Shown: positions 10,675 through 28,507, numbered from the stretch's first letter. The stretch is 33,255 bases of DNA from a virus (IMGVR_UViG_2737471834_000009), one strand, 5' to 3'. Notes: generated from the sequence alone by a model not told the origin. A program made the numbers and translations.

Positions 10675-10708
10675 GTGAAATTAGCTATCAGGCTTCAATT
10701 ACCGCTGG

Positions 10709-10727: not shown

Positions 10728-10731
10728 GTGC

Positions 10732-11660: not shown

Positions 11661-11662
11661 GA

Positions 11663-12154: not shown

Positions 12155-12155
12155 T

Positions 12156-12419
12156 ATGGCAACTTTGACAAAAAAGGAACAGGCATGGTTGAGCGAATTA
12201 CAGAACGTTCTTGATCGCTGCCCGTCACCGAAAAAAATTGGTTTTTACACCATTGGCGATAAAAACATTTACCTGTATGACCTACGCCGCATGGATGAAA
12301 TCATGGAGGCTCTTGATAATCGTTCGTCAATGGATTGGTGTGTTGCTGTCCATGATATGAATGCCGGATTTGAAGAAAAGATTTTGTTCCCCTCGTCAGT
12401 TGAAAGCACAGCGGGTTAA
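12156..12419 (+). CDS. hypothetical protein
   Basis: 87-aa ORF immediately after junction element copy 3. Confidence 0.55.
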   Translation: MATLTKKEQAWLSELQNVLDRCPSPKKIGFYTIGDKNIYLYDLRRMDEIMEALDNRSSMDWCVAVHDMNAGFEEKILFPSSVESTAG

Positions 12420-13322: not shown

Positions 13323-13330
13323 CAAACAAA

Positions 13331-13358
13331 AACCCCGGATTGATGGTCCGGGGTTTTT
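13331..13358 (+). terminator. intrinsic terminator (CCCCGGA-loop-TCCGGGG followed by T5)
   Basis: Perfect 7-bp stem with a T-run; A-run upstream, so it may act in both directions. Confidence 0.7.
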
Positions 13359-13639
13359 GAAGGAAACAAAACAGAAACAACAATTGCCGTTACCTGTTGT
13401 TACCATGGCAAGTAAACGTATCTCAGGCGAGCGCATTGCGCCGTTCTGACGCAGATAAATTAGCCTGGATAGAAGGTGCTGGCAATAAAAAATAGCGTTT
13501 TCTTATCGGTGTCGGTAAGATTGCTGCGGGTGCTTGAGGCTGTCTGCCTCAGGCATGCCACTGTAAGGCAGACAGAGAAAAGCCCCAGTTAACATTATGC
13601 GTCCGGCAAGACGCTTAACATTAATCTGAGGCTCAATCT

Positions 13640-13852
13640 ATGAACGGCAAATCTAGGTTAGCCTCTTACGCGCCGAAAGGCAAGGAGAAGCAGGCTATGA
13701 AGCAGCAAAAGGCGATGTTAGTCGCCCTGATCGTCATCTGTATTACCGTCATTGTGACGGCACTGGTAACGAGGAAAGACCTCTGCGAGGTACGAATCCG
13801 AACCGGCCAGACGGAGGTCACTGTCTTCACAGCTTACGAACCTGAGGAGTAA
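13640..13852 (+). CDS. Mok-like reading frame (in-frame N-terminal extension of Hok)
   Basis: 70-aa ORF containing the hok frame, as in chromosomal mok/hok loci. Confidence 0.55.
   Translation: MNGKSRLASYAPKGKEKQAMKQQKAMLVALIVICITVIVTALVTRKDLCEVRIRTGQTEVTVFTAYEPEE
13697..13852 (+). CDS. hok: Hok/Gef family type I toxin
   Basis: 51-aa product MKQQKAMLVALIVICITVIVTALVTRKDLCEVRIRTGQTEVTVFTAYEPEE is near-identical to remembered HokD/RelF; mRNA leader has the tac-like hairpin GCTTGAGGCTGTCTGCCTCAGG. Confidence 0.85.
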   Translation: MKQQKAMLVALIVICITVIVTALVTRKDLCEVRIRTGQTEVTVFTAYEPEE

Positions 13853-13995
13853 GAGACCAGGCGGGGGAGAAATCCCTCGCCACCTCTGATGTGTCAGGCA
13901 TCCTCAACGCACCCGCACTTAACCCGCTTCGGCGTTTTTTCCGTTGATTAACTCTAGTTATTAGAGAACCGAACTTTTATTGATGGGGCAGGGAG

Positions 13996-14388
13996 ATGAA
14001 GAAACTTGTTTTAGTCGCAGGTGTAATGATTGCAACAGTAATGTTGGGAGGGTGTGCAGCAAAGGTCGATCCAGCGTTGAAAGCAGAAGCAATGAAGCCA
14101 CTAACATGTAATGATGAAAAGCAATGTGACTTTTATTGGAAACGAGCGCAATTCTGGTTGGCTAATAATTCCTCATGGAAAATTCAAACGGCGACAGACA
14201 CGCTAATTTCCACTTATAATCCCTCTCCAAATAGTCCATTCCTCGCTTATCAAGTGAGTAAAATGCCAAATGAAGATGGATCCTCAAGAATTTTCATCAA
14301 GCCTTTTTGCGATAATATGTTTGGCTGTCAACCAAACCCCTATCAGGCAGTTGTTTCCTTTAAAAACTTCGTTAAAACAGGGCAGTAG
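13996..14388 (+). CDS. putative lipoprotein (moron)
   Basis: Signal peptide with lipobox MLGGC, four further cysteines; followed by an intrinsic terminator. Confidence 0.7.
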   Translation: MKKLVLVAGVMIATVMLGGCAAKVDPALKAEAMKPLTCNDEKQCDFYWKRAQFWLANNSSWKIQTATDTLISTYNPSPNSPFLAYQVSKMPNEDGSSRIFIKPFCDNMFGCQPNPYQAVVSFKNFVKTGQ

Positions 14389-14586
14389 TGTATAGCTTGG
14401 ACGATAAATTATTAGTGAAAACGCCGTAAACCCTCACCCAATGTGGACTAAGCCTATCAAACATGACTGTGATGATTAGTCCGTAGTTGTTGCCTATGAA
14501 ATCTGGATTGAGTCAGGGTTTAATCCAATAATTATTCTATCGTTCCTTTACAAGTCCGGTATATTACTTTCAGTTTGTTTTAGCAT

Positions 14587-14612
14587 ACCCGCTTCGGCGG
14601 GTTTTGTTTTTT
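14587..14612 (+). terminator. intrinsic terminator (ACCCGC-TTCG-GCGGGT plus T-run)
   Basis: Perfect 6-bp stem, TTCG loop, TTTTGTTTTTT. Confidence 0.7.
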
Positions 14613-14684
14613 CCTGGCATTCTGGTTTACAATTCGCACGCCAGCCTGAACAACTGGCACCTGCTGCGCCAGCAGAGACAACCG

Positions 14685-14963
14685 ATGGCGCACGATACCA
14701 AATTACACAATTCTGATGATTCTGCCGTCTTTGCCAGCAGGTGCGGACGGCGTTTTCATGCATTCAAATCGGACTGGTTCCAGCATCCACCATGCACTGA
14801 AGAGCAGGCTGAATGGATAATTCAGTGTTACCGCAGGCGCGGATACGAGGTTAAAAAAGCCCTTAGCCTCGACTACCGTCACTGGATAATCTCAGTCAGA
14901 TTGCCTTACTCCGAACGCCCACCGCGTCCGTCCCGCACATTCCAGCAACGCATCTGGAGGTAA
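14685..14963 (+). CDS. hypothetical protein
   Basis: 92-aa ORF from the first ATG downstream of the terminator; stop is 1 nt before the next gene. Confidence 0.45.
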   Translation: MAHDTKLHNSDDSAVFASRCGRRFHAFKSDWFQHPPCTEEQAEWIIQCYRRRGYEVKKALSLDYRHWIISVRLPYSERPPRPSRTFQQRIWR

Positions 14964-14964
14964 C

Positions 14965-16023
14965 GTGCGGGTATTACTTCGACCTGTTCTGGTACCGGAA
15001 CTCGGGCTGGTGATCGTTAAGCCGGGCCGTGAATCCATGCCGGTATTCCACAATACCCGGTTACTGGTGGAGCCGGAACCGAAAAGCATGCGTAATCTGC
15101 CGTCCGGGGTCGTTCCTGCCGCTCGCCAGCCGCTGGTGGAAGACAAAACATTGCTGCCGTTTTTCAGTAACGCACGGGTGATTCGTGCTGCTGGTGGTGC
15201 TGGTGCATTGTCTGACTGGCTGTTGCGCCATATTAAATCCTGCCAGTGGCCACACGGCGATTATCATCACAGCGAAACCGTCATTCACCGTTATGGTACC
15301 GGCGCAATGGTGTTGTGCTGGCACTGCGACAACCAGCTGCGTGACCAGACATCAGAATCACTCGAGCAACTTGCTCATCAAAACTTGTCAGCATGGATGA
15401 TTGACGTCATCCGTCACGCAATCAGCGGTACGCAGGAGAGGGAGTTATCGCTGGCTGAATTATCCTGGTGGGCGGTCTGCAATCAGGTGGCTGATGCGCT
15501 TCCGGAGTCTGTATTGTGTCGTTCACTGGGATTACCGGTGGAAAAAATCCGCTCCGTATACCGTGAGAGTGACATCGTACCGGGAGAACAGACTGCCACC
15601 AGCATACTGAAGCAGCGCACAAAAAATATTGCGCTGCCACTTCACGTCCACCAGCAACAGCCCCCACTCCAGGAAAAGACGTTAGTAAGCATCGCCGTTG
15701 ATCCGGAGTCTCCGGCTCAGTATCTCCAGCGCCAGAAACCACAACGGGAAGAGATGCCTGTATACACGCGCTGGGTAAAAACGCAGAAATGCATGACGTG
15801 CGGTAATCAGGCAGATGATCCGCATCACATCATTGGTCATGGACTGGGAGGGATGGGAACAAAGGCTGATGATTTGTTTGTTATTCCGCTGTGCCGTAAA
15901 TGTCATAACGAACTGCACGCCGGGGTAAAAGATTTTGAAGAAAAACACGGCAGCCAGCTGTTGTTGCTGATTCGTTTTTTAATGCACGCGAGAAATTCGG
16001 GTGTCCTGAAGTGGAAAGCATGA
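14965..16023 (+). CDS. DUF968/YdfU-like protein with C-terminal HNH-like zinc-finger motif
   Basis: 352-aa ORF, GTG start with RBS GGAGG; C-terminus CMTCGNQADDPHHIIGHG...CRKCHNELH; same size and position as Qin prophage ydfU next to Q. Confidence 0.7.
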   Translation: MRVLLRPVLVPELGLVIVKPGRESMPVFHNTRLLVEPEPKSMRNLPSGVVPAARQPLVEDKTLLPFFSNARVIRAAGGAGALSDWLLRHIKSCQWPHGDYHHSETVIHRYGTGAMVLCWHCDNQLRDQTSESLEQLAHQNLSAWMIDVIRHAISGTQERELSLAELSWWAVCNQVADALPESVLCRSLGLPVEKIRSVYRESDIVPGEQTATSILKQRTKNIALPLHVHQQQPPLQEKTLVSIAVDPESPAQYLQRQKPQREEMPVYTRWVKTQKCMTCGNQADDPHHIIGHGLGGMGTKADDLFVIPLCRKCHNELHAGVKDFEEKHGSQLLLLIRFLMHARNSGVLKWKA

Positions 16024-16389
16024 ATGACTGAACGCATAGAATTTGTTTTGCCTTACCCGCCGACGGTGAATACCTACTGGCGACGTCATGGCAATACGTA
16101 TTTCATCTCGGAGGCCGGAAAGCGTTATCGCCGTGATGTGGCGCTAATTGTTCGCCAGCAGCGGCTGAAATTAAACCTGTCCGGAAGGCTGGCGATAAAG
16201 ATTATTGCAGAGCCACCGGATAAGCGCCGTCGTGACCTGGACAATATCCTGAAAGCACCACTGGATGCGCTGACGCATGCCGGACTTATCATAGACGACG
16301 AGCAGTTTGATGAAATCAATATTGTGCGCGGTCAGCTCGTTCCTGGTGGGCGGCTGGGGATAAAAATCACAGAACTGGAGTGCGCATGA
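16024..16389 (+). CDS. rusA: Holliday junction resolvase RusA
   Basis: 121-aa product with RusA hallmarks (LPYPPTVNTYWRRHG...DKRRRDLDNILKAPLDALTHAGLIIDDEQ); ATGA overlap with upstream stop. Confidence 0.9.
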   Translation: MTERIEFVLPYPPTVNTYWRRHGNTYFISEAGKRYRRDVALIVRQQRLKLNLSGRLAIKIIAEPPDKRRRDLDNILKAPLDALTHAGLIIDDEQFDEINIVRGQLVPGGRLGIKITELECA

Positions 16390-17075
16390 ATAACCAGTAT
16401 TTACAGTTTGTGCGTGAGCAGCTCATTATCGCCACCGCTGATTTGAGTGGGGCAACAAAAGGTCAGCTTGAAGCCTGGCAGGAGAATGCCATGTTCGATA
16501 CAGGGCGTTACAGGCGTAAAAAAATCCGGTACCGAGATGAAGTGACCGGAAAAATGATTACGCGGGATAATCCACCAATCCCGGGAAAACAATCACTGGT
16601 GAAAGGCTCATCAATTGCCCTGGTCAGCCCGGTTGAGTTTTCGACATCATCGTGGCGGCGGGCTGTTTTGTCTCTTGAAGAACATCATAAAGCCTGGTTG
16701 TTGTGGAGTTACAGCGGGAGTATTTGTTGGGAATATCAGATCGCGATAACACAGTGGGCGTGGAATGAATTTAATACTCAATCAGGTACCAGAAAAATTG
16801 CAGGGAAAACGCAGGAACGCCTGAAAAAATTAATCTGGCTGGCGGCGCAGGCAGTAAAAGCAGAACTTTTTGGTGGGGAAGGTTATGAATACCAGGAGCT
16901 GGCATTACTGGCGGGAGTGACAACTAAAAACTGGTCCAAAACATTTACTCGTCACTGGGTTGCAATGAAACACATTTTTCAACGACTGGATAGTGAGGCT
17001 TTATTGTTTGTAATGAGAACACGTTCAAAACAAAAGGCGGCATTTTCAAAGCAAAGTGTTGCAAAAGTAGATTGA
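16386..17075 (+). CDS. late gene antiterminator Q-like protein
   Basis: About 230 aa, immediately upstream of a promoter and short terminated transcript and then the lysis genes; start overlaps rusA stop. Confidence 0.7.
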   Translation: MNNQYLQFVREQLIIATADLSGATKGQLEAWQENAMFDTGRYRRKKIRYRDEVTGKMITRDNPPIPGKQSLVKGSSIALVSPVEFSTSSWRRAVLSLEEHHKAWLLWSYSGSICWEYQIAITQWAWNEFNTQSGTRKIAGKTQERLKKLIWLAAQAVKAELFGGEGYEYQELALLAGVTTKNWSKTFTRHWVAMKHIFQRLDSEALLFVMRTRSKQKAAFSKQSVAKVD

Positions 17076-17087
17076 AAGGCATATATT
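17059..17087 (+). promoter_or_regulatory. putative late promoter pR'-like
   Basis: -35 TTGCAA (17059-17064), 17-bp spacer, -10 TATATT (17082-17087), overlapping the 3' end of Q. Confidence 0.5.
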
Positions 17088-17141
17088 TCATGCAAATCTG
17101 ATATTTTGCCGATTTTGTACGTGATGGCAAAAGCAAACAAA

Positions 17142-17165
17142 ACCCGCCCACAAGCGGGTTTTTTT
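17142..17165 (+). terminator. intrinsic terminator tR'-like
   Basis: CCCGC-CCACAA-GCGGG followed by T7, about 55 nt downstream of the predicted pR' start site. Confidence 0.7.
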
Positions 17166-17247
17166 GTGCCACTTATCTCGGATAGAAATGGTGAATGCGC
17201 TGGTGGAGGAGCTAAGGGTGATTTTTAACCAGGTGATTTTTGAATGC

Positions 17248-17276
17248 TTGCAACATTGATTTCGTAACGTTATTAT
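17248..17276 (+). promoter_or_regulatory. putative sigma70 promoter for the tRNA cluster
   Basis: -35 TTGCAA, 17-bp spacer, -10 TATTAT, ending 10 nt before the first tRNA. Confidence 0.5.
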
Positions 17277-17285
17277 CCTGCGCCC

Positions 17286-17361
17286 GGCCCTTTAGCTCAG
17301 TGGTGAGAGCGAGCGACTCATAATCGCCAGGTCGCTGGTTCAAATCCAGCAAGGGCCACCA
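17286..17361 (+). tRNA. tRNA, anticodon CAU (ileX/ileZ-like tRNA-Ile2; tRNA-Met not excluded)
   Basis: Manual cloverleaf: acceptor GGCCCTT/AAGGGCC, anticodon loop CTCATAA, T-loop TTCAAAT, CCA encoded; close to remembered ileX. Confidence 0.8.
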
Positions 17362-17362
17362 A

Positions 17363-17439
17363 CCGCCACTAGCTCATCAGGAAAGAGCGTCAACCCTTTA
17401 AGTTGAGTGTGCGAGGTTCGAGTCCCCGGTGGCGGTCCA
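17363..17439 (+). tRNA. atypical tRNA, anticodon loop CCTTTAA (anticodon UUU, Lys-like, with C at position 33)
   Basis: Manual cloverleaf: acceptor CCGCCAC/GTGGCGG (C1-G72), D-loop with GG, T-loop TTCGAGT, CCA encoded; isotype uncertain. Confidence 0.55.
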
Positions 17440-17441
17440 GT

Positions 17442-17517
<76 letters not shown>

Positions 17518-17520
17518 TAT

Positions 17521-17595
<75 letters not shown>

Positions 17596-17601
17596 GTTAG
17601 A

Positions 17602-17647
17602 GTCTTTCAGTCTGCGATGATGGGAAATCCCGGAGTGACTGAAAGAC
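17602..17647. repeat. perfect 11-bp inverted repeat (GTCTTTCAGTC / GACTGAAAGAC) with 24-nt loop
   Basis: Directly after the last tRNA. Confidence 0.7.
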
Positions 17648-17654
17648 GTTTAAG

Positions 17655-17727
17655 TTATGAATGATCGCCTTTTTTTGCAAAATTGCTGTGCAGAAATACT
17701 AACCTTCGGGCAGGCGATCATTCATAA
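17655..17727. repeat. perfect 15-bp inverted repeat (TTATGAATGATCGCC / GGCGATCATTCATAA) with 43-nt spacer
   Basis: Read directly from sequence; no ORF of appreciable size inside. Confidence 0.7.
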
Positions 17728-17801
17728 GCACTCTGCTTTTATTCCGATTAACTGTGGGTGGTTTGTTGGATAGAGTGCTTTCCTTTCTGTATATATCGTT
17801 T

Positions 17802-17826
17802 CGCCCGCTTTTGCGGGTTTTTCTTT
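17802..17826 (+). terminator. intrinsic terminator-like hairpin upstream of the lysis cassette
   Basis: CGCCCGC-TTTT-GCGGG followed by a T-run. Confidence 0.55.
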
Positions 17827-17887
17827 TCAAATCCCTTTCATTTCTCAGTGTAAAACTACGCCATCCGTTATTTGCGGAGGTGAGGCT

Positions 17888-18103
17888 ATGAAATCCATGG
17901 ACAAAATTTCAACGGGCATTGCCTATGGCACCTCCGCAGGCAGTGCTGGCTACTGGTTTTTACAGTGGCTTGATCAGGTCAGTCCGTCACAGTGGGCTGC
18001 GATTGGTGTGCTGGGGAGTCTGGTTCTGGGCTTCCTGACTTATCTGACAAATCTGTACTTCAAAATCAGAGAAGACAAGCGTAAGGCTGCACGGGGAGAG
18101 TAA
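17888..18103 (+). CDS. class II holin (phage 21 S-type pinholin) with dual-start motif
   Basis: 71-aa product [28 protein letters not shown]...; two TM segments; Met1/Met4 dual start. Confidence 0.9.
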
Positions 18104-18107
18104 TTCA

Positions 18108-18458
18108 ATGACTCAAAACTATGAACTGATTGTGAAAGGGATCCGCAATTTTGAGAATAAAGTTACGGTAACTTTAGCGTTACGGGACAAAAAACGCTTT
18201 GACGGTGAAATTTTTGACCTGGACATCTCGCTGGACCGTGTTGAAGGTGCCGCGCTGGAGTTTTATGAGGCAGCAGCCAGAAGGAGCATCAGACAGGTCT
18301 TCCTGGATGTTGCTGCCGGGTTATGTGAAGGGGATGAGCAGTCGCCGGAAAAGCGCCCCGTAATTTTAGATGCGCAGAATGTGTGGATAACCTACAAAGG
18401 AAAGCTACCAGGAAGAATTACTGGTTCTCTGAAGACTCCTCCGGAATCACAACCTTAA
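18108..18458 (+). CDS. hypothetical protein between holin and endolysin (YdfR-like position)
   Basis: 116-aa soluble ORF; the same position in the Qin prophage is occupied by ydfR. Confidence 0.55.
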   Translation: MTQNYELIVKGIRNFENKVTVTLALRDKKRFDGEIFDLDISLDRVEGAALEFYEAAARRSIRQVFLDVAAGLCEGDEQSPEKRPVILDAQNVWITYKGKLPGRITGSLKTPPESQP

Positions 18459-18521
18459 GTCACTGACCGGAACAGATAAACCTGTCCGTGGGCAGAAACC
18501 GATAAATCCTGATAAATATCC

Positions 18522-19055
18522 ATGAACGCAAAAATCAGATACGGCCTGTCGGCTGCCGTTCTGACACTGATTGCCGTCGGTGCGCCCGCGCCTGATATTC
18601 TCGACCAGTTTCTGGATGAAAAAGAGGGTAACCACACAACGGCATACCGCGATGGGTCCGGCATCTGGACCATCTGTCGGGGTGCCACGATGGTGGATGG
18701 AAAACCCGTTTTTCCCGGTATGAAACTGTCGAAGGAAAAATGCGACCAGGTCAACGCCATTGAGCGTGATAAGGCGCTGGCATGGGTGGAGCGCAATATT
18801 AAAGTACCACTGACCGAACCACAAAAAGCGGGTATCGCGTCATTTTGTCCCTATAACATTGGCCCCGGTAAGTGTTTTCCGTCGACGTTTTATAAGCGGC
18901 TGAATGCCGGTGATCGTAAGGGCGCATGCGAGGCGATTCGCTGGTGGATAAAAGATGGTGGGCGCGATTGCCGCATACGTTCAAATAACTGCTATGGACA
19001 GGTTATTCGTCGTGACCAGGAAAGCGCATTAGCCTGTTGGGGGATAGATCAGTGA
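18522..19055 (+). CDS. SAR endolysin (lysozyme, phage 21 R / P1 Lyz type)
   Basis: N-terminal signal-anchor-release segment ([17 protein letters not shown]) and lysozyme catalytic region (E-x8-D-x5-T: [16 protein letters not shown]). Confidence 0.9.
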
Positions 19056-19519
19056 GCAGAGTCGCCGCGATTATTTATGCTCTGGTTATCTGCATCATCG
19101 TCTGCCTGTCGTGGGCGGTCAATCATTACCGTGATAACGCCATCGCCTACAAAGAACAGCGTGATAAAAAAGTCAGTGAGCTGAAGCTGGCGATCGCCAC
19201 CATCGCTGACATGCAGCAGCGTCAGCGTGATGTTGCTGCGCTCGATGCAAAGTACTCGAGAGAATTAGCCAATGCGCAAGCTGAAAATGAAACTCTGCGC
19301 GCTGATGTTGCCGCTGGCCGTAAGCGCCTGCGGGTCAATGCCAGTTGCTCCGCAGCCGTGCGTGAAGCCACCGGACCCACCAGCGTGGATAATGCAACCA
19401 TCCCCCGACTGGCAGACACCGCTGAACGGGATTATTTCACCCTCAGAGACCGATTGATGACGATGCAGATGCAACTGGAAGGGGCGCAGGAATATATCCG
19501 CACTCAGTGCATTAAGTAG
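19052..19519 (+). CDS. Rz: i-spanin Rz
   Basis: GTG start overlapping the endolysin stop; N-terminal TM followed by coiled-coil; product [31 protein letters not shown]... Confidence 0.85.
19272..19457 (+). CDS. Rz1: o-spanin Rz1 (lipoprotein), embedded in the +1 frame of Rz
   Basis: Lipobox LAVSAC, proline-rich mature region ([21 protein letters not shown]); entirely within Rz. Confidence 0.8.
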
Positions 19520-19561
19520 CCTTTTTATCGTGGTAAACATTTCGCAGGGTATGAGGTATTT

Positions 19562-19912
19562 ATGCCATCACGAATCCCACGCGCCTGCCGTAAGCGTGGA
19601 TGTGCAGGTACAACCACAGACAGTTCTGGTTACTGCGATAAACATCGTGGCGAAGGATGGGTACAGCATCAACGCGGACTGAGCCGCCACCAGCGTGGCT
19701 ATGGCTCGAAATGGGATGCCATACGTGCGCGCATACTGAAGCGTGATAATCATCTGTGTCAGAACTGCCTGCGCAATGGGAGAGCCGTTGAAGCCAGAAC
19801 TGTGGACCACATCATTCCGAAAGCTCATGGTGGCACGGATGCAGACAGTAACCTGCAGAGTCTGTGCTGGCCCTGTCATAAAGCAAAAACAGCGCGCGAA
19901 CGCATCAATTGA
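19562..19912 (+). CDS. HNH endonuclease (terminase-associated)
   Basis: CxxC...H-N-H...CxxCH motifs (CQNCLRNG...DHIIPKAHGGTDADSNLQSLCWPCHKAK); directly upstream of the terminase genes. Confidence 0.85.
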   Translation: MPSRIPRACRKRGCAGTTTDSSGYCDKHRGEGWVQHQRGLSRHQRGYGSKWDAIRARILKRDNHLCQNCLRNGRAVEARTVDHIIPKAHGGTDADSNLQSLCWPCHKAKTARERIN

Positions 19913-20059
19913 TAACAGTTCCCATCTGTAGGGGAGGGGCGGGTCAAATCTCTGCAACCCTGGCTGCTCAGTACCGCCGCCTGACCTTTCCTCACATCGC
20001 CGCAGGTTCGAAAACTTTTTTTGGAAATGTGAACAAACGATTGATAGGTAAAACCGATT

Positions 20060-20542: not shown

Positions 20543-22299
20543 TGGCAAAAGTGGCTGACGGGATCCGCTACGCCGAACGTGTTGTTGCAGGAGAAATTGT
20601 TGCTGGCGAATTTGTCCGTCTGGCCTGCCAGCGTTTTCTTGATGATCTGAAGTACGGCGAGAAGCGGGGGATTTATTTCAGTGAACCCCGTGCGCAGCAC
20701 ATCCTGAATTTCTACAAATTTGTACCCCATGTGAAAGGGGCGCTGGCAGGCCAGCCCATTGAGTTGATGGACTGGCATGTATTTATCCTCATTAATATTT
20801 TTGGTTTTGTCATTCCGCTGGTCAATGAAGAGACCGGGGAAGTTGTCATGCGCAGCGATGGCAGCGGACGTCCGGTGATGGTGCGCCGGTTCCGGACGGC
20901 GTACAACGAAGTCGCCCGTAAAAACGCAAAATCAACTCTGTCATCGGGTATCGGCCTGTATATGACGGGGGCAGATGGTGAAGGCGGAGCTGAGGTGTAT
21001 TCAGCCGCAACCACGCGTGACCAGGCCAGAATCGTGTTTGAAGACGCCAAAAATATGGTCAGAAAAGCCCGGTCGACACTCGGGCGGTTGTTTGATTTCA
21101 ACAAGCTGGCGATTTACCAGGAGCAGAGCGCATCAAAATTTGAACCGCTTTCTTCGGATGCAAACAACCTGGATGGTCTGAACATCCACTGCGCCATTAT
21201 TGATGAGCTGCATGCACATAAAACCCGTGACGTGTGGGACGTTCTGGAAACGGCAACCGGTGCTCGTCTGCAGTCCCTTTTATTTGGTATCACCACGGCA
21301 GGGTTTAACAAGGAAGGGATTTGTTACGAGCAGCGTGATTACGCCATCAAGGTATTGCGTGGCTATAACAGCGACGTGGAGGGCGCGGTAAAAGACGACT
21401 CCTACTTTGCGATTATTTACACCCTCGATGAGGGAGATGATCCGTTTGATGAAACGGTCTGGCAGAAAGCGAATCCCGGCCTGGGCATCTGTAAACGCTG
21501 GGATGATCTGCGTCGCTTGGCGAAAAAAGCGAAAGAACAGGTCTCTGCACGGGTGAATTTTTTTACCAAACACATGAATGTGTGGGTAACAGCAGAGTCT
21601 GCCTGGATGGACATGATTAAGTGGGAGAAGTGCGAATACATTGCCCCACGACATGAGCTGAAAACGTATCCCATGTGGGTCGGCGTTGACCTTGCTCATA
21701 AGATTGATATCTGTGCGGCGGCAAAACTCTGGCGAACGGATAACGGGCATGTTCATGCCGATTTTAAATTCTGGCTCCCGGAAGGACGGCTGGAACGATG
21801 CTCGCGGCAGCAGGCAGAACTTTACCGGAAGTGGGCGGAGATGGATAAGCTGATTCTGACGGATGGTGATGTTATCGATCATGCTCAGATAAAAAGTGAC
21901 TTACTGGAATGGATTGGTGGTGAAAATCTCAGGGAACTGGGATTTGACCCGTGGAGCGCGATGCAGTTCAGCCTGGCACTGGCTGAAGAAGGGATACCGC
22001 TGGTGGAGGTTCCGCAGACGGTTCGCAATCTGTCAGAGGCCATGAAGGAAACGGAATCACTGGTCTATGCCGGGCGTTTCCATCACAGCAATCATCCGGT
22101 CATGAACTGGATGATGTCTAACGTTACGGTAAAACCGGACAAAAACGACAACATCTTCCCGAATAAATCCACGCCTGAAGCCAAAATCGACGGCCCTGTT
22201 GCACTTTTTACGGCCATGAGCCGCTTTCTGGTAAATGGCGGGGACGTGAATGACTTTCTGTCCACGCTTGATCCTGATGAGGACCTGTTAATTCTGTGA
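20542..22299 (+). CDS. terminase large subunit
   Basis: 585-aa ORF at the head of the head-gene module; ATPase and nuclease acidic motifs visible. Confidence 0.9.
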   Translation: MAKVADGIRYAERVVAGEIVAGEFVRLACQRFLDDLKYGEKRGIYFSEPRAQHILNFYKFVPHVKGALAGQPIELMDWHVFILINIFGFVIPLVNEETGEVVMRSDGSGRPVMVRRFRTAYNEVARKNAKSTLSSGIGLYMTGADGEGGAEVYSAATTRDQARIVFEDAKNMVRKARSTLGRLFDFNKLAIYQEQSASKFEPLSSDANNLDGLNIHCAIIDELHAHKTRDVWDVLETATGARLQSLLFGITTAGFNKEGICYEQRDYAIKVLRGYNSDVEGAVKDDSYFAIIYTLDEGDDPFDETVWQKANPGLGICKRWDDLRRLAKKAKEQVSARVNFFTKHMNVWVTAESAWMDMIKWEKCEYIAPRHELKTYPMWVGVDLAHKIDICAAAKLWRTDNGHVHADFKFWLPEGRLERCSRQQAELYRKWAEMDKLILTDGDVIDHAQIKSDLLEWIGGENLRELGFDPWSAMQFSLALAEEGIPLVEVPQTVRNLSEAMKETESLVYAGRFHHSNHPVMNWMMSNVTVKPDKNDNIFPNKSTPEAKIDGPVALFTAMSRFLVNGGDVNDFLSTLDPDEDLLIL

Positions 22300-22316
22300 A
22301 ACAGCTTATTACTGAT

Positions 22317-22457
22317 ATGACCGGGCTGATCGGTTTCGGTCTGCTCACTGCTGGTGTTTATCTGTATGCAGGTCTGCCAGCGTCTCTGATGCTGTCTGGC
22401 TGTTTGTTGCTGCTTTATGCACTGGTGGTGTCCATGAGGAGAAAACATGCTTCTTGA
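22317..22457 (+). CDS. possible 46-aa hydrophobic peptide between terminase and portal
   Basis: Hand-translated MTGLIGFGLLTAGVYLYAGLPASLMLSGCLLLLYALVVSMRRKHAS; overlaps the portal start; no RBS evaluated. Confidence 0.25.
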   Translation: MTGLIGFGLLTAGVYLYAGLPASLMLSGCLLLLYALVVSMRRKHAS

Positions 22458-23673
22458 TGCTCTGTTTCGCAGTGAGCCTCTGGAAAATCCCTCGGTTCCG
22501 GTAACCGGAGAGGCCGCTGAGACGGATAATATTTTTGCCCGGGATGTGTATGTCAGTCCGGAAACATCCATGAAGCTGGCTGCTGTCTATGCCTGTATTT
22601 ATGTTATTTCATCCAGTGTGGCTCAGATGCCCCTGCATGTGATGCGAAAAACGAATGAGCATGTTCAGCCGGCACGCGATCATCCGTTGTTCTGGCTCGT
22701 TCATGATGAACCTAATGCCTGGCAGACCAGCTATAAGTGGCGGGAACTGAAGCAGCGTCATGTGCTGGGGTGGGGCAATGGTTATACGTGGGTAAAACGT
22801 AATCGTCGTGGTGAGGTTACCAGCCTTGAATGCTGTATGCCATGGGAAACCACGTTACTTAACACCGGTGGGCGTCATACTTACGGGGTGTATAACGAAG
22901 AGGGGGCATTTGCGGTAAGTCCGGACGACATGATCCATATCAGGGCGCTGGGAAACAATCAGAAAATGGGACTGAGTCCGATCATGCAGCATGCTGAAAC
23001 CATTGGTATGGGAATGAGTGGTCAGCAGTATACCAGTGCTTTTTTTAACGGTAATGCCCGTCCTGCCGGGATTGTTTCTGTGAAAAATGAACTGAACGAA
23101 CAGAGTTGGAGCAGGCTCAAGAATATGTGGCAGCGGGCGGTGACAGCGCTTCGCAGTCAGGAAAATAAAACCATGCTGCTGCCTGCGCAACTGGATTACC
23201 GTGCCCTGACAGTTTCTCCGGTGGATGCTCAGATCATTGATATGACCAAGCTGAACCGGTCGATGATTGCCGGAATTTTTAATGTCCCGGCGCACATGAT
23301 TAATGACCTGGAAAAAGCCACATTTTCGAATATTACACAGCAGGCGATTCAGTTTGTTCGCTACACGATGATGCCCTGGGTTGCGAACTGGGAGCAGGAG
23401 CTTAACCGTCGCCTGTTTACCCGCACAGAACGGGCTGCCGGGTATTACGTTCGTTTCAACCTTACAGGATTGCTCCGCGGGACTCCGCAGGAGCGTGCGC
23501 AGTTTTATCACTTTGCCATTACAGATGGCTGGATGAGCCGGAATGAAGCGAGGGCATTTGAGGACATGAACCCGGTTGATGGTCTGGATGAAATGCTGGT
23601 CAGCGTAAATGCAGCAAATCCGTTGAATGATTTTAAAGATACGAAAGGCAAAGAGGAAAAGAACGATGAATGA
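22447..23673 (+). CDS. portal protein (HK97 family)
   Basis: 408-aa ORF following the terminase, followed by prohead protease and major capsid. Confidence 0.9.
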   Translation: MLLDALFRSEPLENPSVPVTGEAAETDNIFARDVYVSPETSMKLAAVYACIYVISSSVAQMPLHVMRKTNEHVQPARDHPLFWLVHDEPNAWQTSYKWRELKQRHVLGWGNGYTWVKRNRRGEVTSLECCMPWETTLLNTGGRHTYGVYNEEGAFAVSPDDMIHIRALGNNQKMGLSPIMQHAETIGMGMSGQQYTSAFFNGNARPAGIVSVKNELNEQSWSRLKNMWQRAVTALRSQENKTMLLPAQLDYRALTVSPVDAQIIDMTKLNRSMIAGIFNVPAHMINDLEKATFSNITQQAIQFVRYTMMPWVANWEQELNRRLFTRTERAAGYYVRFNLTGLLRGTPQERAQFYHFAITDGWMSRNEARAFEDMNPVDGLDEMLVSVNAANPLNDFKDTKGKEEKNDE

Positions 23674-24265
23674 CCGTGAAACGCGCTGTTACAGCGGGGA
23701 AGTGCGGGCAGAACAATATGATAATGCCCCGACTCATATTTTGGGGTATGGCTCGGTATTTAACAGTCGTTCAGAACCTCTGTGGGGATTTCGTGAAATC
23801 ATCAAGCCGGGGGCTTTTGACGACGTGCTGAATGATGATGTACGTGGATTGTTTAATCATGATCCTAATTTCATTCTCGGACGAAGTTCTGCCGGCACGT
23901 TGTCATTATCAGTGGATGAACGTGGTTTGCGTTACGACATTGTTGCACCGGATACGCCGACGATTTGTGACCTGGTGCTGTCACCAATGTTGCGTGGTGA
24001 CATTAATCAGTCCTCGTTCGCGTTTCGCGTCGCTCGTGATGGAGAGAGCTGGTATGAAGACGACGAGGGGATTGTTATCCGGGAAATCACGCGCATTTCT
24101 CGTCTGTATGACGTCAGCCCGGTGACATATCCGGCCTATCAGGACGCAGACTCTGGTGTCCGCTCAATGAAAGCCTGGCAGGAAGCGCGGGCGAGTGGTG
24201 CGCTGAAGAAAGCTGTTAACGAACGAATGGCGCGTGAGCGTCTTTTGACCCTTCTTAATGCATAA
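23666..24265 (+). CDS. prohead protease (HK97 family)
   Basis: About 200 aa, start overlapping the portal stop; position between portal and capsid. Confidence 0.85.
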   Translation: MNDRETRCYSGEVRAEQYDNAPTHILGYGSVFNSRSEPLWGFREIIKPGAFDDVLNDDVRGLFNHDPNFILGRSSAGTLSLSVDERGLRYDIVAPDTPTICDLVLSPMLRGDINQSSFAFRVARDGESWYEDDEGIVIREITRISRLYDVSPVTYPAYQDADSGVRSMKAWQEARASGALKKAVNERMARERLLTLLNA

Positions 24266-24279
24266 GGATACTACTGACG

Positions 24280-25497
24280 ATGAAACTTCATGAGATGAAG
24301 CAAAAACGAAACACCATTGCAAAGGATATGCGTGCACTGCATGAAAAAATTGGTGATAACGCATGGACTGATGAGCAACGGGTAGAGTGGAACAGGGCGA
24401 AAGCTGAGCTGGATGCGCTGGATGAGCAAATCGCCCGTGAAGAAGAGTTGCGCCGTCAGGATCAGGAATATGTGGATGAGTCCGGGCCGGAAGAGCGCCA
24501 GAATAATGAGGCGGAGAACGGGAAAAAGGCGGTGGAAGAGAAGCGCGCTGCGGCATTTAACCGTTTTCTGCGTGCCGGATTTGCAGAACTGAATGCTGAA
24601 GAGCGTAATCTGATGCGTGAACTGCGGGCTCAGAGTGTAACAACGGATTCTCAGGGCGGATATACGGTGCCCACGCAGATGCGTAACAAAATCATTGACA
24701 CCATGAAGGCTTATGGCGGGATTGCCAGTGTGGCGCAACTTCTGACCACATCAACCGGGCAGGATATCACCTGGTCAACGTCTGATGGCACGACTGAAGA
24801 GGGCGAACTGCTGGCGGAAAATACAGCCGCAACGGAACAGGATGTGACGTTCGGGACCGCTATTCTGGGGGCTAAAAAGCTGTCATCAAAAATAATTCGT
24901 GTGTCCAATGAGCTGCTCCAGGACAGTGGGGTGGATATTGAATCTTATCTGGCAAACCGTATTGCCCAGCGTATTGGTCGTGGAGAGGCAAAATATCTGG
25001 TTCAGGGGACCGGAACGGGATCACCGTTACAGCCAAAAGGGCTTGCAGCGTCGGTGACGGGAACCATCCAGACTGCAGCCTCTGCCGCTTTCACCTGGAA
25101 AGAAATGAATGCCCTGAAACATGCCATTGATCCGGCATATCGTGGTGGGCCGAAATACCGCTGGGCATTCAATGATGCCACATTGCAGACTATTGAAGAG
25201 ATGGAGGATGGACAGAAACGCCCGTTATGGCTGCCGGATATTGCAGGCGGTACGCCGGCTACTGTGCTGGGGATCCCTTATGTTATTGATCAGGCTATTG
25301 ACGGGATTGGTACCGGGAAAAAATTCATTTTCCTTGGGGATTTCAACCGATTTATCATTCGCCGCGTTACTTATATGGAACTGAAACGTCTGGTTGAGCG
25401 TTATGCTGAGTTTGATCAGGTGGCATTTCTGGCTTTCCATCGTTTTGACTGTGTGCTGGAAGATGTGGCAGCCATCAAGGCGCTCACTGGCAAATAA
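24280..25497 (+). CDS. major capsid protein (HK97 fold) with N-terminal coiled-coil delta domain
   Basis: 405 aa; charged heptad-rich N-terminal 100 aa followed by the capsid body; terminator immediately downstream. Confidence 0.9.
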   Translation: MKLHEMKQKRNTIAKDMRALHEKIGDNAWTDEQRVEWNRAKAELDALDEQIAREEELRRQDQEYVDESGPEERQNNEAENGKKAVEEKRAAAFNRFLRAGFAELNAEERNLMRELRAQSVTTDSQGGYTVPTQMRNKIIDTMKAYGGIASVAQLLTTSTGQDITWSTSDGTTEEGELLAENTAATEQDVTFGTAILGAKKLSSKIIRVSNELLQDSGVDIESYLANRIAQRIGRGEAKYLVQGTGTGSPLQPKGLAASVTGTIQTAASAAFTWKEMNALKHAIDPAYRGGPKYRWAFNDATLQTIEEMEDGQKRPLWLPDIAGGTPATVLGIPYVIDQAIDGIGTGKKFIFLGDFNRFIIRRVTYMELKRLVERYAEFDQVAFLAFHRFDCVLEDVAAIKALTGK

Positions 25498-25518
25498 CCA
25501 CACGTTGTTCAGTTACAG

Positions 25519-25542
25519 ACCGCGCCGACGCGGTTTTTTTTA
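25519..25542 (+). terminator. intrinsic terminator after the major capsid gene
   Basis: ACCGCG-CCGA-CGCGGT followed by T8. Confidence 0.7.
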
Positions 25543-25574
25543 TGCCCGCACAGTGTTGCGGGCAGGAGTTTCTG

Positions 25575-25892
25575 ATGGCAGCAATAGTGGAAAAACTCAG
25601 GGCACAGTGCCGTATTGATACAGATGATGCAACTGATGATGAGTTACTGATGCTGTATTTCCGGGCGGCCTGCCGCAAGGCAGAAAATTTTATCAACCGT
25701 AAGCTTTATGAGGAGACGGTGCCGGAAGGTGATCCTGAAGGGGTGCTTATAGCTGATGATGTTTTGCTGGCGCTCATGTTGCTGGTCGGACACTGGTACG
25801 AAAACCGGGAAAATTCCTCAGATGTCAGCAAGGCACCAGTCCCGTTTGGTTTTTCTTCTCTGCTGGAGCCTTATCGTTTTATTCCTTTGTAG
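25575..25892 (+). CDS. head-tail connector protein (gp6-like)
   Basis: About 105 aa, first gene after the capsid terminator, RBS AGGAG. Confidence 0.65.
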   Translation: MAAIVEKLRAQCRIDTDDATDDELLMLYFRAACRKAENFINRKLYEETVPEGDPEGVLIADDVLLALMLLVGHWYENRENSSDVSKAPVPFGFSSLLEPYRFIPL

Positions 25893-25900
25893 GAGGAGGC

Positions 25901-26239
25901 ATGCAGGCGGGCAGATTACGTGATCGCGTAATTATTCTGAATGTCACCACCGCCCGCTCTCCGTCAGGGCATCCGGTGGAGACGGTGACGGAGGGAGCTA
26001 CCGTATGGGCAGAAGTCAGGGGGATCAGCGGCAGGGAACGTATGTCTGCTGGTGCAGAAACAGCGCAGGCTACGGTGAGAGTCTGGATGCGTTTCCGGCG
26101 TGATGTGACGGCCGCTTCGCGTCTGAAAGTGCTGACGGGGGCTTATAAGGGAACCATTTTGCATGTTGACGGGCCGCCGATCCCCGATACCAGGTGCAGG
26201 CGGCTTGAATTACTGTGCAGTGTTGGAGGTAAAGGATGA
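25901..26239 (+). CDS. head closure / head-tail joining protein
   Basis: 112-aa ORF with RBS GGAGGAGG; conserved position. Confidence 0.65.
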   Translation: MQAGRLRDRVIILNVTTARSPSGHPVETVTEGATVWAEVRGISGRERMSAGAETAQATVRVWMRFRRDVTAASRLKVLTGAYKGTILHVDGPPIPDTRCRRLELLCSVGGKG

Positions 26240-26685
26240 CGGATTTCACCCTGGATTTTTCTGGTCTGGATGATATTGCCAGAGATCTGGAACTTCTCAG
26301 CAGAGCGGAAAGCAATAAAGTACTGCGTGATGCCACCCGTGCAGGTGCTGAAGTTATCCGGGATGCGGTTGTCGAATGTGCGCCGGAGCGAACCGGGAAA
26401 CTGAAGAAAAATGTGGTTGTTCTGACGAAGCGTTCAAAGCGTCGCGGGGAAATTATTTCTGGTATCCACATTCGTGGTCGGAACATGCGAACCGGTAACA
26501 GTGATAACAGCATGAAAGCCAGCGATCCGCGAAATGCGTTTTACTGGCGCTTTGTGGAACTGGGCACGGTAAATATGCCTGCTCATCCGTTTATTCGTCC
26601 GGCCTTTGATACGACAGAGGAACTGGCCGCACAGGTTGCCATACAGCGAATGAATCAGGCTATTGATGAGGTATTAAGTCAATGA
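26236..26685 (+). CDS. tail component (HK97 gp10-like)
   Basis: 149-aa ORF, start overlapping the upstream stop. Confidence 0.65.
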   Translation: MTDFTLDFSGLDDIARDLELLSRAESNKVLRDATRAGAEVIRDAVVECAPERTGKLKKNVVVLTKRSKRRGEIISGIHIRGRNMRTGNSDNSMKASDPRNAFYWRFVELGTVNMPAHPFIRPAFDTTEELAAQVAIQRMNQAIDEVLSQ

Positions 26686-27026
26686 GGGAGGCCACCCTGT
26701 ATTCCCTGCTGTCGGAACTGGCCGGAGGACAGGTTTATCCTTATGTGGTCCCGCTGACGGAGGGAAAGCCTGCGGTATCTCCGCCGTGGCTGGTGTTTTC
26801 TGTGGTATCTGATGTTTCTGCGGATGTGCTGGGTGGTCAGGCGGAATCAAGAATGACGGTACAGATAGACGTCTGGGCAGATGGACCCGATCTGGCGCGT
26901 GAAATCCGGGAACAGGCGATGTCTGCCGTTCGTCCGCTGGCCCCGTTTGCTGTCTCCCAAACCCAGGGATACGATTCTGATTCTGGCCTTAACCGGGCCA
27001 CGCTGGAATTTCAGGTGATGTATTAA
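26682..27026 (+). CDS. tail completion protein (gp11-like)
   Basis: 114-aa ORF immediately before the major tail gene. Confidence 0.6.
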   Translation: MREATLYSLLSELAGGQVYPYVVPLTEGKPAVSPPWLVFSVVSDVSADVLGGQAESRMTVQIDVWADGPDLAREIREQAMSAVRPLAPFAVSQTQGYDSDSGLNRATLEFQVMY

Positions 27027-27028
27027 TG

Positions 27029-27054
27029 ACCCGCTGCTGGCGGGTTTTTTCTTT
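27029..27054 (+). terminator. intrinsic terminator-like hairpin between tail completion and major tail genes
   Basis: CCCGC-TGCTG-GCGGG followed by TTTTTTCTTTT. Confidence 0.6.
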
Positions 27055-27067
27055 TCAGGAGATGTAT

Positions 27068-27784
27068 ATGCCATCTAATTATGAACGATCCCAGTTGACG
27101 CAGGTGATGATTTCATCCGCTCCCGTAAGGCCTGAAACCGTGGAGAAAGCGGAATACCTGCGTCTGGACTGTACCATCAAGGAAGTCCAGTTTACTGCGG
27201 GTCAGAAACAGGATGTTGACGTGACAACGCTTTGCTCCACAGAACAGGAGAATATCAACGGCCTTGGATCTCCATCCGAGATTTCAATGTCGGGTAACTT
27301 CTTTATGAATCCTGCACAGAACGCCCTGCGTGATGCGTATGATAATGACAGTGTGTATGCATTTAAGGTGCAGTTTCCGTCCGGACGTGGGTTTAAGTTT
27401 ATGGCAGAAGTACGTCAGCATACCTGGTCTTCCGGCACTAATGGCGTGGTGGCTGCGACTTTTTCCCTGCGTCTGAAAGGGAAGCCTTCGCTGTATGTGG
27501 TACCACTGGATTTTGTGCGTAACCTTCCGGAAGCGCATGTGGTGACGACAGGATCATTACTGACGCTGTCTGTTGCGGTCAGTGGAGGTACTCCGCCTTA
27601 CAGCTATACCTGGTATAAAGACGGTAAGGCTGTGGCTGACCAGACTACAGACACGTTCAATAAAGCCGGTGCGCAGACGGAGGATACTGGCGAGTACACT
27701 TGTACGGTGATGGATTCGGCGAATCAGCCTCTGAGTGTCACATCACTGGCGTGTCAGGTGATGGTGAATGCGGTAACCGGATAA
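27068..27784 (+). CDS. major tail protein with C-terminal Ig-like domain
   Basis: RBS AGGAG before the ATG; C-terminal segment with Ig-like signature (TLSVAVSGGTPPYSYTWYKDGK...GEYTCTV). Confidence 0.8.
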   Translation: MPSNYERSQLTQVMISSAPVRPETVEKAEYLRLDCTIKEVQFTAGQKQDVDVTTLCSTEQENINGLGSPSEISMSGNFFMNPAQNALRDAYDNDSVYAFKVQFPSGRGFKFMAEVRQHTWSSGTNGVVAATFSLRLKGKPSLYVVPLDFVRNLPEAHVVTTGSLLTLSVAVSGGTPPYSYTWYKDGKAVADQTTDTFNKAGAQTEDTGEYTCTVMDSANQPLSVTSLACQVMVNAVTG

Positions 27785-27793
27785 GGAAATGTC

Positions 27794-28165
27794 ATGGAAA
27801 AAGATTTAAAAACGCTGGCGCTGTCAACGATGGCGGGGTTTCGTCATAAGACAGTGGTGGTACCGGAATGGGACGGTGCTACGGTAGTGCTGAGGGAGCC
27901 GTCAGCTGAAGCCTGGCTACGCTGGCAGGAGATAGTCAGACAGGAAAAGGGGGAAACGCCGTTGTCCGTTTCGGTACGGGCCCGCCGGGATCTGGAAGCC
28001 GATGTTGAGTTGTTCATTGATGTTTTGTGCGATACCGGGATGAAAAAGGTATTTTCTGCGGGTGATCGGGAACAGGTACTGGCAGTGTATGGTCCTGTGC
28101 ATACGCGACTATTGCGGCAGGCGCTGGAGCTGGTTACTGATGCCGGTGAGGTTAAAAAAAAATAG
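27794..28165 (+). CDS. tail assembly chaperone (lambda G-like)
   Basis: 123-aa ORF ending in the A-run slippery site; followed by an ORF in the -1 frame. Confidence 0.8.
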   Translation: MEKDLKTLALSTMAGFRHKTVVVPEWDGATVVLREPSAEAWLRWQEIVRQEKGETPLSVSVRARRDLEADVELFIDVLCDTGMKKVFSAGDREQVLAVYGPVHTRLLRQALELVTDAGEVKKK

Positions 28166-28467
28166 CCATGCCGGGGATACGTTTTCTGATGATGCTGGCG
28201 CTCCGGATGGGGCGCACATTGTCAGAATTACGCCGGGAAATGTCCGCATCAGAAATCATGATGTGGGCAGAATTTGACAGGTTCAGTCCGCTGGGTGACG
28301 AGCGGGCTGATATCCGGGCTGCCCAGATAGTTTCTGCGGTTTACGGTGCGCAGGGTGTCAAAGTATCACTGAATGATGCGCTTCTTCAGTGGGAGAAGGA
28401 GCAGACAGAAGGCACCTCAGATCCATTTGCCGGACTGGAAAATGCGCTTTTAACCGTATCTCAGTGA
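28150..28467 (+). CDS. tail assembly chaperone frameshift extension (lambda T-like; expressed as G-T fusion)
   Basis: -1 frame ORF continuing from the slippery site; canonical position between the chaperone and tape measure genes. Confidence 0.7.
28154..28162 (+). other. programmed -1 ribosomal frameshift site (A9 slippery run)
   Basis: GTT AAA AAA AAA TAG at the end of the G-like gene; downstream ORF (28168-28467) is in the -1 frame. Confidence 0.7.
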
Positions 28468-28475
28468 GTCGACAT

Positions 28476-28497
28476 AACCGCTTCGGCGGTTTTTTTT
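28476..28497 (+). terminator. intrinsic terminator-like hairpin before the tape measure gene
   Basis: AACCGC-TTCG-GCGGTT followed by T7. Confidence 0.55.
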
Positions 28498-28507
28498 CGT
28501 CCGGAGA

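Follow-up and report, generated by a model that had tools for sequence, protein, structure and literature searches.

Probable Rho-independent terminator hairpins with similar stems at the module boundaries of a lambdoid prophage

IMGVR_UViG_2737471834_000009 is a stretch of viral DNA of 33,255 nucleotides (hereafter the window), in which a family of hairpins with a CCCGC/GCGGG-type stem accompanies the early-right and late operons between positions 13331 and 28497. We propose that these hairpins are probably ordinary Rho-independent terminators at the module boundaries of a lambdoid prophage, and that the resemblance of their stems is mostly the outcome of convergence; a single pair, on either side of an insert downstream of hokD, are true copies of one ancestral terminator.

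The window represents a lambdoid prophage and has a Q gene of the Q82 family, tail genes like those of HK97 and an early-right region like that of Qin. Its closest matches are lambdoid Escherichia coli prophages, the best being phage vB_EcoS-689R5 and strain 32F4 (94-95% identity). From the sok/hokD module onward, the early-right genes, Q, a tRNA cluster and the lysis, head and tail genes follow each other on the plus strand, with hairpins in the gaps between them (Table 1). The comparison with related phages that the sequence-only reading of this DNA had called for was carried out on 160 loci: 80 fetched loci encoding close relatives of Q for the early region, and 80 fetched loci encoding capsid relatives (78-100% identity) for the late region. 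Across these loci the hairpins occupy conserved slots. Together with the annotation of phage HK97 and the Term-seq data for the Qin prophage of E. coli K-12, this bears out the claim of that reading that intrinsic-terminator-like hairpins punctuate both operons.

Table 1. Genes, hairpins and promoter-like sites of the window discussed in the text
Feature	Position	Strand	Details
Bidirectional terminator-like hairpin, 13 bp, AAAAACCCCGGA..TCCGGGGTTTTT	13327..13359	.	-23.0 kcal/mol; stem not CCCGC-type
sok/hokD	Rfam sok 13528-13702	+	Rfam and Pfam HOK_GEF
Crippled left hokD terminator copy, AACCCGCTTCGGCG followed by TTTTTT	13921..13940	+	3' arm truncated
Moron-like insert, ~665 bp, with lipoprotein open reading frame (ORF)	13935..14599	+	bounded by two hairpin copies
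Lipoprotein ORF, 130 amino acids	13996-14388	+	lipobox LGGC
Intact hairpin ACCCGC-TTCG-GCGGGT with T-run	14587..14611	+	-11.2 kcal/mol; right-hand hokD terminator copy
ORF of 92 amino acids, then ydfU/DUF968 and rusA	between lipoprotein ORF and Q	+	
Q antiterminator	16380-17075	+	Pfam PF06323, E 9e-90
Promoter-like TTGCAA-17-TATATT, candidate late promoter (pR')	17059..17087	+	9/12 consensus positions; overlaps Q stop codon
-10-like GATATT, candidate sigma-dependent pause element	17100-17105	+	few bases into predicted transcript
Hairpin in the slot of the late-leader terminator (tR'), AAAACCCGC-CCACAA-GCGGGTTTT with T-run	17139..17165	.	-16.6 kcal/mol
Second promoter-like site, upstream of tRNA genes	17248-17276	+	consensus scan
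Four tRNA genes (CAT, Lys, Thr, Gly)	17286-17595	+	downstream of candidate pR'
Hairpin GCCCGC-TTTT-GCGGGT with T-run	17803..17827	+	-11.5 kcal/mol; ~60 nt upstream of holin gene
Lysis genes, then terminase, portal and protease	after tRNA insert, before major capsid gene	+	
Major capsid gene	24280-25497	+	
First post-capsid hairpin, AGACCGCG-CCGA-CGCGGTTT with T8	25517..25541	+	
Second post-capsid hairpin, TGCCCGCA-CAGTGT-TGCGGGCA, no T-run	25543..25564	+	-15.1 kcal/mol; adjoins AGGAG of connector gene
Head-tail genes, including head-tail connector (start 25575)	between major capsid and major tail gene	+	
Hairpin GACCCGCT-GCT-GGCGGGTT with T-run	27028..27055	+	between tail-completion and major tail gene (start 27068)
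Major tail gene	27068-27784	+	chaperone frames G and T next
Hairpin AACCGC-TTCG-GCGGTT with T8	28476..28499	+	-7.6 kcal/mol; between T frame and tape-measure gene; moron slot
Tape-measure gene	28508-31756	+	

Seven hairpins had been listed from the sequence, at 13921, 14587, 17142, 17803, 25519, 27029 and 28476, and all seven were recovered on the plus strand with a run of four to eight T residues directly 3' of the stem. All are intergenic and co-directional with the plus-strand genes, in a region (13331-28497) of which gaps make up approximately 11% as estimated from the ORF map. The further assertion that they have the same, near-identical stem holds for 14587, 17142, 17803 and 27029, which carry the exact CCCGC/GCGGG stem, and not for the other three. 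The stem at 28476 has one C-G pair less than the exact motif (CCGC/GCGG), the one at 25519 is different (ACCGCG-CCGA-CGCGGT, with CCGCG/CGCGG), and 13921, which reads ACCCGCTTCGGCG followed by TTTTTT, has a shortened 3' arm and folds at -2.9 kcal/mol, compared to -7.6 to -16.6 kcal/mol at the other sites. With this truncated arm and weak fold, 13921 lacks the stem of an intrinsic terminator; the remaining six have stems of 6-9 bp and loops of 3-6 nt. A search for CCCGC-N3-12-GCGGG returned five matches (14588, 17143, 17804, 25545 and 27030) against 0.2 expected, a number reached in none of 100 shuffles. The additional match at 25545-25562, missing from the earlier list, adjoins the ribosome-binding site of the next gene and has no T-run, so that by the U-tract criterion it is not a terminator.

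The likeness among the stems had been taken as a hint at the spread of a common element, and here the evidence points the other way. The 30-nt flanks of the hairpins show a mean identity of 0.245 upstream and 0.257 downstream versus 0.252 for random pairs from the window, and in a repeat search the family spans 24 nt, i.e., the hairpin and its T-run. At gathering thresholds, Rfam reports sok, DicF and the tRNAs alone, the hairpins matching no family. At least 120 stretches of unrelated bacterial genomes from several phyla contain the exact 19-mer ACCCGCTTCGGCGGGTTTT (among the matches listed, Pseudomonas, Burkholderiales, Saccharibacteria, Firmicutes and Bacteroidota), with unrelated flanks and the upstream A-tract typical of terminators. 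Since the flanks are unrelated and the 19-mer recurs so widely, the similarity appears to be mostly convergence, presumably on a minimal strong terminator in which a 5' arm rich in C and a 3' arm rich in G enclose a stable tetraloop ahead of a U-tract; shared ancestry is retained for 13921 and 14587 only. An interspersed repeat or mobile element, whether a repetitive extragenic palindrome (REP) or bacterial interspersed mosaic element (BIME), a miniature inverted-repeat transposable element (MITE) or an integron attC site, was considered and rejected on the random flanks, the 24-nt extent, the lack of an Rfam family and the occurrence of the 19-mer in unrelated genomes. As a separate observation, in several Pseudomonas and enterobacterial genomes ACCCGCTTCGGCGGGTTTT is followed by tttatgcccggagaa, a context that resembles GGCGGTTTTTTTTCGTCCGGAGAATG ahead of the tape-measure gene in the window and may represent a conserved phage-tail context.

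The slot after hokD is where common descent can be traced. In 19 related loci the hokD 3' region continues through one intact hairpin into the sequence found beyond 14587 in the window (...cacttaACCCGCTTCGGCGGGTTTTgttttttcctggcattctgg...), and the intact form ACCCGCTTCGGCGGGTTTT occupies the position equivalent to 13921 in relatives and in K-12 Qin. In the window, as in 23 other loci, a 665-bp insert instead separates a left copy of the hairpin that is truncated from a right copy that is intact, and a 13-nt direct repeat (ACCCGCTTCGGCG) is common to the two. As extra DNA relative to syntenic relatives, with a deviant base composition (39% G+C versus approximately 50% for the window), this insert has the marks of a moron. 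On this comparison, 13921 and 14587 represent one hokD terminator that has been split or duplicated by the 665-bp insertion, and are the sole pair of true copies among the hairpins. The intact copy at 14587 now closes the insert, the lipoprotein ORF of which matches phrog_16082 (function unknown) and has no Pfam match. Although the insert has a terminator, a consensus scan found no promoter of its own in 13935-13995; with the left hairpin copy crippled, its expression may depend on read-through from the hok promoter. On the upstream side, the hairpin at 13327 sits between the last ORF of the nin region and the sok/hok module. Transcripts from the early-right promoter would need to pass the strong hairpins at 13327 and 14587 before reaching Q (16380).

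The lipoprotein gene is not the only cargo of this slot. It is occupied by rem in K-12 and elsewhere by two different two-gene modules encoding a Peptidase_M78 protein, both flanked on each side by hairpin copies, and one locus has three hairpin copies after hokD. In these two-gene modules a protein of phrog_5786 (L149 type) or phrog_35814 (L086 type), each of function unknown, precedes the Peptidase_M78 (ImmA/IrrE-like) protein, which has an N-terminal helix-turn-helix (HTH) domain in the L086 type only; their G+C content is 40-43%, and they may be defence or toxin-antitoxin-like. In phage 933W the homology of hokW is lost exactly at the 5' edge of the hairpin, which is absent there. When the Q loci are aligned, break-points gather at 13320, 13930-13940 and 14580, and at plain gene boundaries as well.

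In K-12, Term-seq places the 3' end of hokD at 1,645,081/2 (-), corresponding to approximately position 13890 of the window, at the first hairpin past the stop codon (PMC7815308). This mapped end falls approximately 40 nt upstream of the terminator hairpin. An end at that position agrees with the 3'-processed form of the hok mRNA. The K-12 Term-seq list holds this processed end alone and no full-length hokD 3' end at the terminator hairpin, which leaves the hairpin of the hok slot without direct in vivo support.

A second well-defined slot follows Q. The gene immediately upstream of the 17142 hairpin belongs to a recognised antiterminator family, PF06323 being the Q82 family (PMC9388147). Between the Q stop codon and this hairpin the sequence hardly changes across 79 loci, differences being restricted to the loop, and the hairpin is inherited together with Q. 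The stretch includes the promoter-like site and the -10-like element. The hairpin lies approximately 50 nt beyond GATATT, and the predicted leader RNA of approximately 72 nt (17094-17165) folds as two hairpins. This layout is that of a lambdoid pR'/tR' module, a terminator shortly after the candidate promoter behind a short leader, with 17142 as the putative tR'. The leader (17092-17164, +) gives full-length, sub-threshold Rfam matches to two small RNAs that Salmonella prophages carry, isrK (E 0.014) and isrJ (E 0.039).

The stretch beyond pR' is known to take up insertions, and Hfq-binding small RNAs have been described in this slot (Tree et al., 2014, PMC4104026). In the window it holds the tRNA genes and a structured RNA, and the 17803 hairpin closes this insert ahead of the lysis genes; relatives with other cargo in the interval have different hairpins in the same slot. 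The approximately 200 nt between tRNA-Gly and this hairpin (17596-17800) fold as three long hairpins (z = -5.96 versus shuffles). A permissive Rfam scan of 17050-17900 yielded the weak isrK/isrJ matches alone and no family for the 17596-17800 structure.

The late operon has hairpins at three places, namely behind the major capsid gene and ahead of the major tail and tape-measure genes. Behind the capsid gene two hairpins stand in tandem, an arrangement that persists down to 78% amino acid identity of the capsid, with varying stems and loops and GNRA loops. In relatives this pair opens with a small hairpin and seven or eight T residues; its second member is CCCGC-type, with a changed inner stem, directly before the ribosome-binding site. 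This conservation was judged by folding each sequence separately, the MAFFT alignment being out of structural register because arm and loop lengths differ. The second member of the pair is one argument for a purely post-transcriptional role, in which the late-operon hairpins would act as barriers to 3' exonucleases, 25545 would be a protective 5' stem-loop, and termination would be irrelevant in any state. Hairpin 25545 is conserved despite having no T-run and adjoining the ribosome-binding site, a Q-loaded polymerase should not terminate (PMC9388147), and terminator hairpins raise the stability of upstream mRNA (PMC11696848). Yet all hairpins except 25545 keep a long T-run (T5-T8) right behind the stem, needed for termination but not for blocking an exonuclease; hairpins of this type in K-12 yield sharp 3' ends 8 nt past the stem (PMC7815308), and the moron of HK97 in the same slot is described with its own terminator (PMC3594210). 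We consider an exclusively post-transcriptional function improbable.

At 27029 the relatives keep CCCGC/GCGGG around five different loops while the flanking tail-completion and major tail proteins are 52-80% and 59-66% identical, and the hairpin block forms a local identity peak of 84% compared to 64-68% in the adjacent bins. The hairpin of the 28476 slot is always the last element before the tape-measure gene, and in several relatives at least three unrelated extra genes lie between the T frame and the hairpin. Such moron-slot genes, seen in seven of the relatives, comprise a zinc-ribbon membrane protein, lipoprotein-like ORFs and a small membrane ORF, each with a terminator hairpin directly after it. 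The idea that the late-operon hairpins mark mosaic junctions was rejected on identity profiles of eight relatives, whose break-points (approximately 25950, 26800, 27500-27800 and 28200) lie away from them.

It had also been suggested that these hairpins are partial terminators tuning stoichiometry. They would then be leaky even for Q-modified polymerase, the late transcript stepping down to yield more of the capsid and tail-tube proteins than of minor proteins. The polarity fits at 25519 and 28476, where T-run hairpins stand right after the major capsid gene and after the major-tail/chaperone block before the low-copy tape-measure gene, and inefficient balancing terminators are documented for T7 and have been seen in Pseudomonas phage LUZ7 (PMC9163698). 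At 27029 the polarity is wrong for such tuning, since the hairpin stands immediately 5' of the major tail gene, where a partial loss of transcription would reduce the virion protein that ranks second in abundance; moreover, the early-region members (hokD, tR' and the tRNA insert) have other obvious roles. As to the antiterminator, the Q proteins of lambda and phage 21 form a nozzle that prevents the formation of terminator hairpins and stay active across tens of thousands of nucleotides (PMC9388147), which argues against leakiness, whereas Q proteins of the Q82 family possibly form no closed nozzle (PMC9388147), which would permit it. On balance we regard stoichiometric tuning as unlikely.

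Our preferred reading, termination at module boundaries, assigns each hairpin a task. The 13921/14587 pair would descend from the terminator of the hokD mRNA, 17142 would act as the tR' that ends the late-promoter leader, and 17803 would close the tRNA insert just before the lysis genes. The sites at 25519 (with 25545), 27029 and 28476 would fill the post-capsid, pre-major-tail and pre-tape-measure slots, as in HK97. In the lysogen, or before Q is made, the hairpins would stop any polymerase that has not been loaded with Q at pR', including those that set out from the tRNA promoter, a moron promoter or a spurious site, and the lysis and virion genes would be insulated. After induction, Q-loaded polymerase would read through all hairpins; folded in the finished transcript, they could then block 3' exonucleases and modulate the stability of segments. 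Insulation of this kind has been described for other operons in which internal terminators coexist with a processive antiterminator (PMC8955417).

Several points weigh against this interpretation. The in vivo 3' ends at hand come from the K-12 Qin hairpins and not from the late-operon slots. Promoter assignments are consensus matches only, and the number of promoter-like hits in the window is not above that in shuffled sequences. Because the Q82 nozzle is possibly not closed (PMC9388147), Q-loaded polymerase might terminate at times. Furthermore, the motif is approximately 15 times denser in lambdoid DNA (5 in 33 kb of the window and 3 in 20 kb of Qin, versus 2 in approximately 230 kb of non-prophage K-12), as judged against a small host sample and with a 'terminator-like' comparison set that includes false positives. 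Such a density is not obviously predicted by convergence alone, and part of it may stem from terminators inherited in common or exchanged within the lambdoid gene pool. Finally, the letters CATA stand 5' of the right-hand hairpin of three cargo cassettes and of the 28476 hairpin, and are rare before the same hairpin elsewhere.

The density, the CATA and the break-points of the hokD slot are the reasons to keep, as a minority reading, the idea that the hairpins mark or serve as short-homology recombination joints for the gain and loss of morons, their similarity being partly due to descent or exchange. Specifically, ACCCGC-TTCG-GCGGGT might double as a portable joint after hokD, between copies of which the lipoprotein, rem and Peptidase_M78 cargos are gained or lost. 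Three unrelated cargos there are flanked by hairpin copies (the lipoprotein gene, phrog_5786 with Peptidase_M78, and phrog_35814 with the HTH-Peptidase_M78 protein), the cassettes have a G+C content of 39-43%, and the empty sites look like the product of hairpin-by-hairpin recombination; the exact loss of hokW homology in 933W and the break-point clusters at 13320, 13930-13940 and 14580 fit as well. Against it, the late-operon break-points do not coincide with hairpins, those near 17142 and 17803 are 35-60 nt off, and the morons of the tape-measure slot have one hairpin each, at their 3' end. No recombinase was found associated with the hairpins, the identical 19-mer arises independently in unrelated genomes, and the correlation of hairpins with junctions is partly trivial, given that terminators and module ends coincide anyway. 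We hold a role as recombination joint, and the portable joint after hokD in particular, to be possible but doubtful; if true, it would help to explain the roughly 15-fold higher stem density in lambdoid DNA.

Under the preferred interpretation as terminators, the findings have little import beyond annotation, as a known kind of element lies at known positions. Terminators of tR', hok and moron units are textbook elements. What is gained is the assignment of each hairpin to a slot and the demonstration that sequence similarity of terminators is not evidence of a shared element. The sole addition is the split hokD terminator with the variable cargo slot it marks, which could be mined for accessory or defence genes.

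Three further features of the window were seen outside the region of the hairpins. A DicF small RNA (4759-4810, -; Rfam RF00039, 76.7 bits) confirms a Qin/DicB-type early-left arm. Clusters of a 10-nt repeat of the ATGTCACG type (8073-8125 and 8360-8437), within the ORF 7941-9023, resemble the iterons of a replication origin in an O-like gene. A block of approximately 39 nt (CATTCGCATCAAAGGAGAG...ATG) occurs three times (10700-10738, 11630-11668 and 12124-12162), each time 5' of a nin-region ORF, as a repeated boundary sequence that includes the ribosome-binding site.

The arrangement can be compared to several known systems, among them phage T7. Its terminator T-phi also lies directly after the major capsid gene within a longer late unit and has been invoked for the balance of expression (PMC9163698). 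T7, however, uses its own RNA polymerase without Q-type antitermination, and leakiness has been measured in T7. The logic is matched by the conAn conjugation operon of plasmid pLS20, which pairs many internal terminators with processive antitermination (PMC8955417). There too, only a polymerase that has been loaded at the main promoter gets past the internal terminators, while spurious or internal transcripts stop at the next one. The antiterminator is a different one, the plasmid is Gram-positive, and the operon contains more than 20 internal terminators compared to three or four hairpins in the visible late operon of the window.

In the Qin prophage of K-12, CCCGC/GCGGG hairpins are found after hokD, after the Q gene ydfT and once more between Q and the lysis genes. 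Term-seq maps a 3' end at 1,642,356 (-), 8 nt after AAAACCCGC-TGATGA-GCGGG downstream of ydfT, in all three growth conditions, and another at 1,641,060 (+) at the third of these hairpins, AAAAAACCCGCCTGAGCGGGTTT (PMC7815308). The post-Q slot of Qin thus has the same AAAACCCGC/GCGGGTTTT stem as the hairpin at 17139, with a different loop and flanks. Given that ydfT has no detectable similarity to the Q of the window, unrelated Q modules use the same terminator stem. In its general plan, i.e., Q, a promoter-like site within approximately 20 nt, a -10-like repeat and a strong terminator approximately 70 nt downstream, the window resembles the lambdoid late module, with promoter and pause element being putative. 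It departs from that module in that a tRNA cluster and the 17803 hairpin as a second terminator separate tR' from the lysis genes.

Morons, a concept that goes back to gene 15 of HK97 in the very slot of the 28476 hairpin, are said to come with a promoter and a terminator of their own (PMC3594210). The insert at 13935-14599 resembles them as DNA that is extra relative to the 19 relatives, low in G+C and provided with a terminator at its end. It differs in that no promoter was found for the lipoprotein insert in the consensus scan, and in being flanked by a 13-nt repeat of the host-site terminator. In the moron slot itself the window has no gene, unlike HK97 with gp15.

For the late operon, HK97 provides a close parallel. 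In its record AF069529, 'putative terminator' features follow gp5, stand on either side of gp12, follow the gp15 moron and recur further downstream; the source of this annotation is Juhala et al. (2000), cited in PMC3594210. The head modules are unrelated (24% identity of the capsid protein over a fragment), and the post-capsid stem of HK97, GGGCGGG-GAAA-CCCGCCC, is unlike that of the window, which also has a tandem pair. The HK97 terminator right after gp12 has no counterpart in the window. The tail modules are homologous, with 62% amino acid identity for the major tail protein, 63% for T and 83% for the N-terminus of the tape-measure protein. Before gp12, HK97 carries AACCCGCC-AGAT-GGCGGGTT, the orthologue of the 27029 hairpin, and ahead of its tape-measure gene ACCCGC-TATCAA-GCGGGT, so that the CCCGC/GCGGG stem is found at both sites. 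In both phages, T-run hairpins follow the major head gene, precede the major tail gene, and stand between the moron slot and the tape-measure gene. Terminator-like hairpins in HK97-type slots of the late operon are a pattern already known, having been annotated in 2000.

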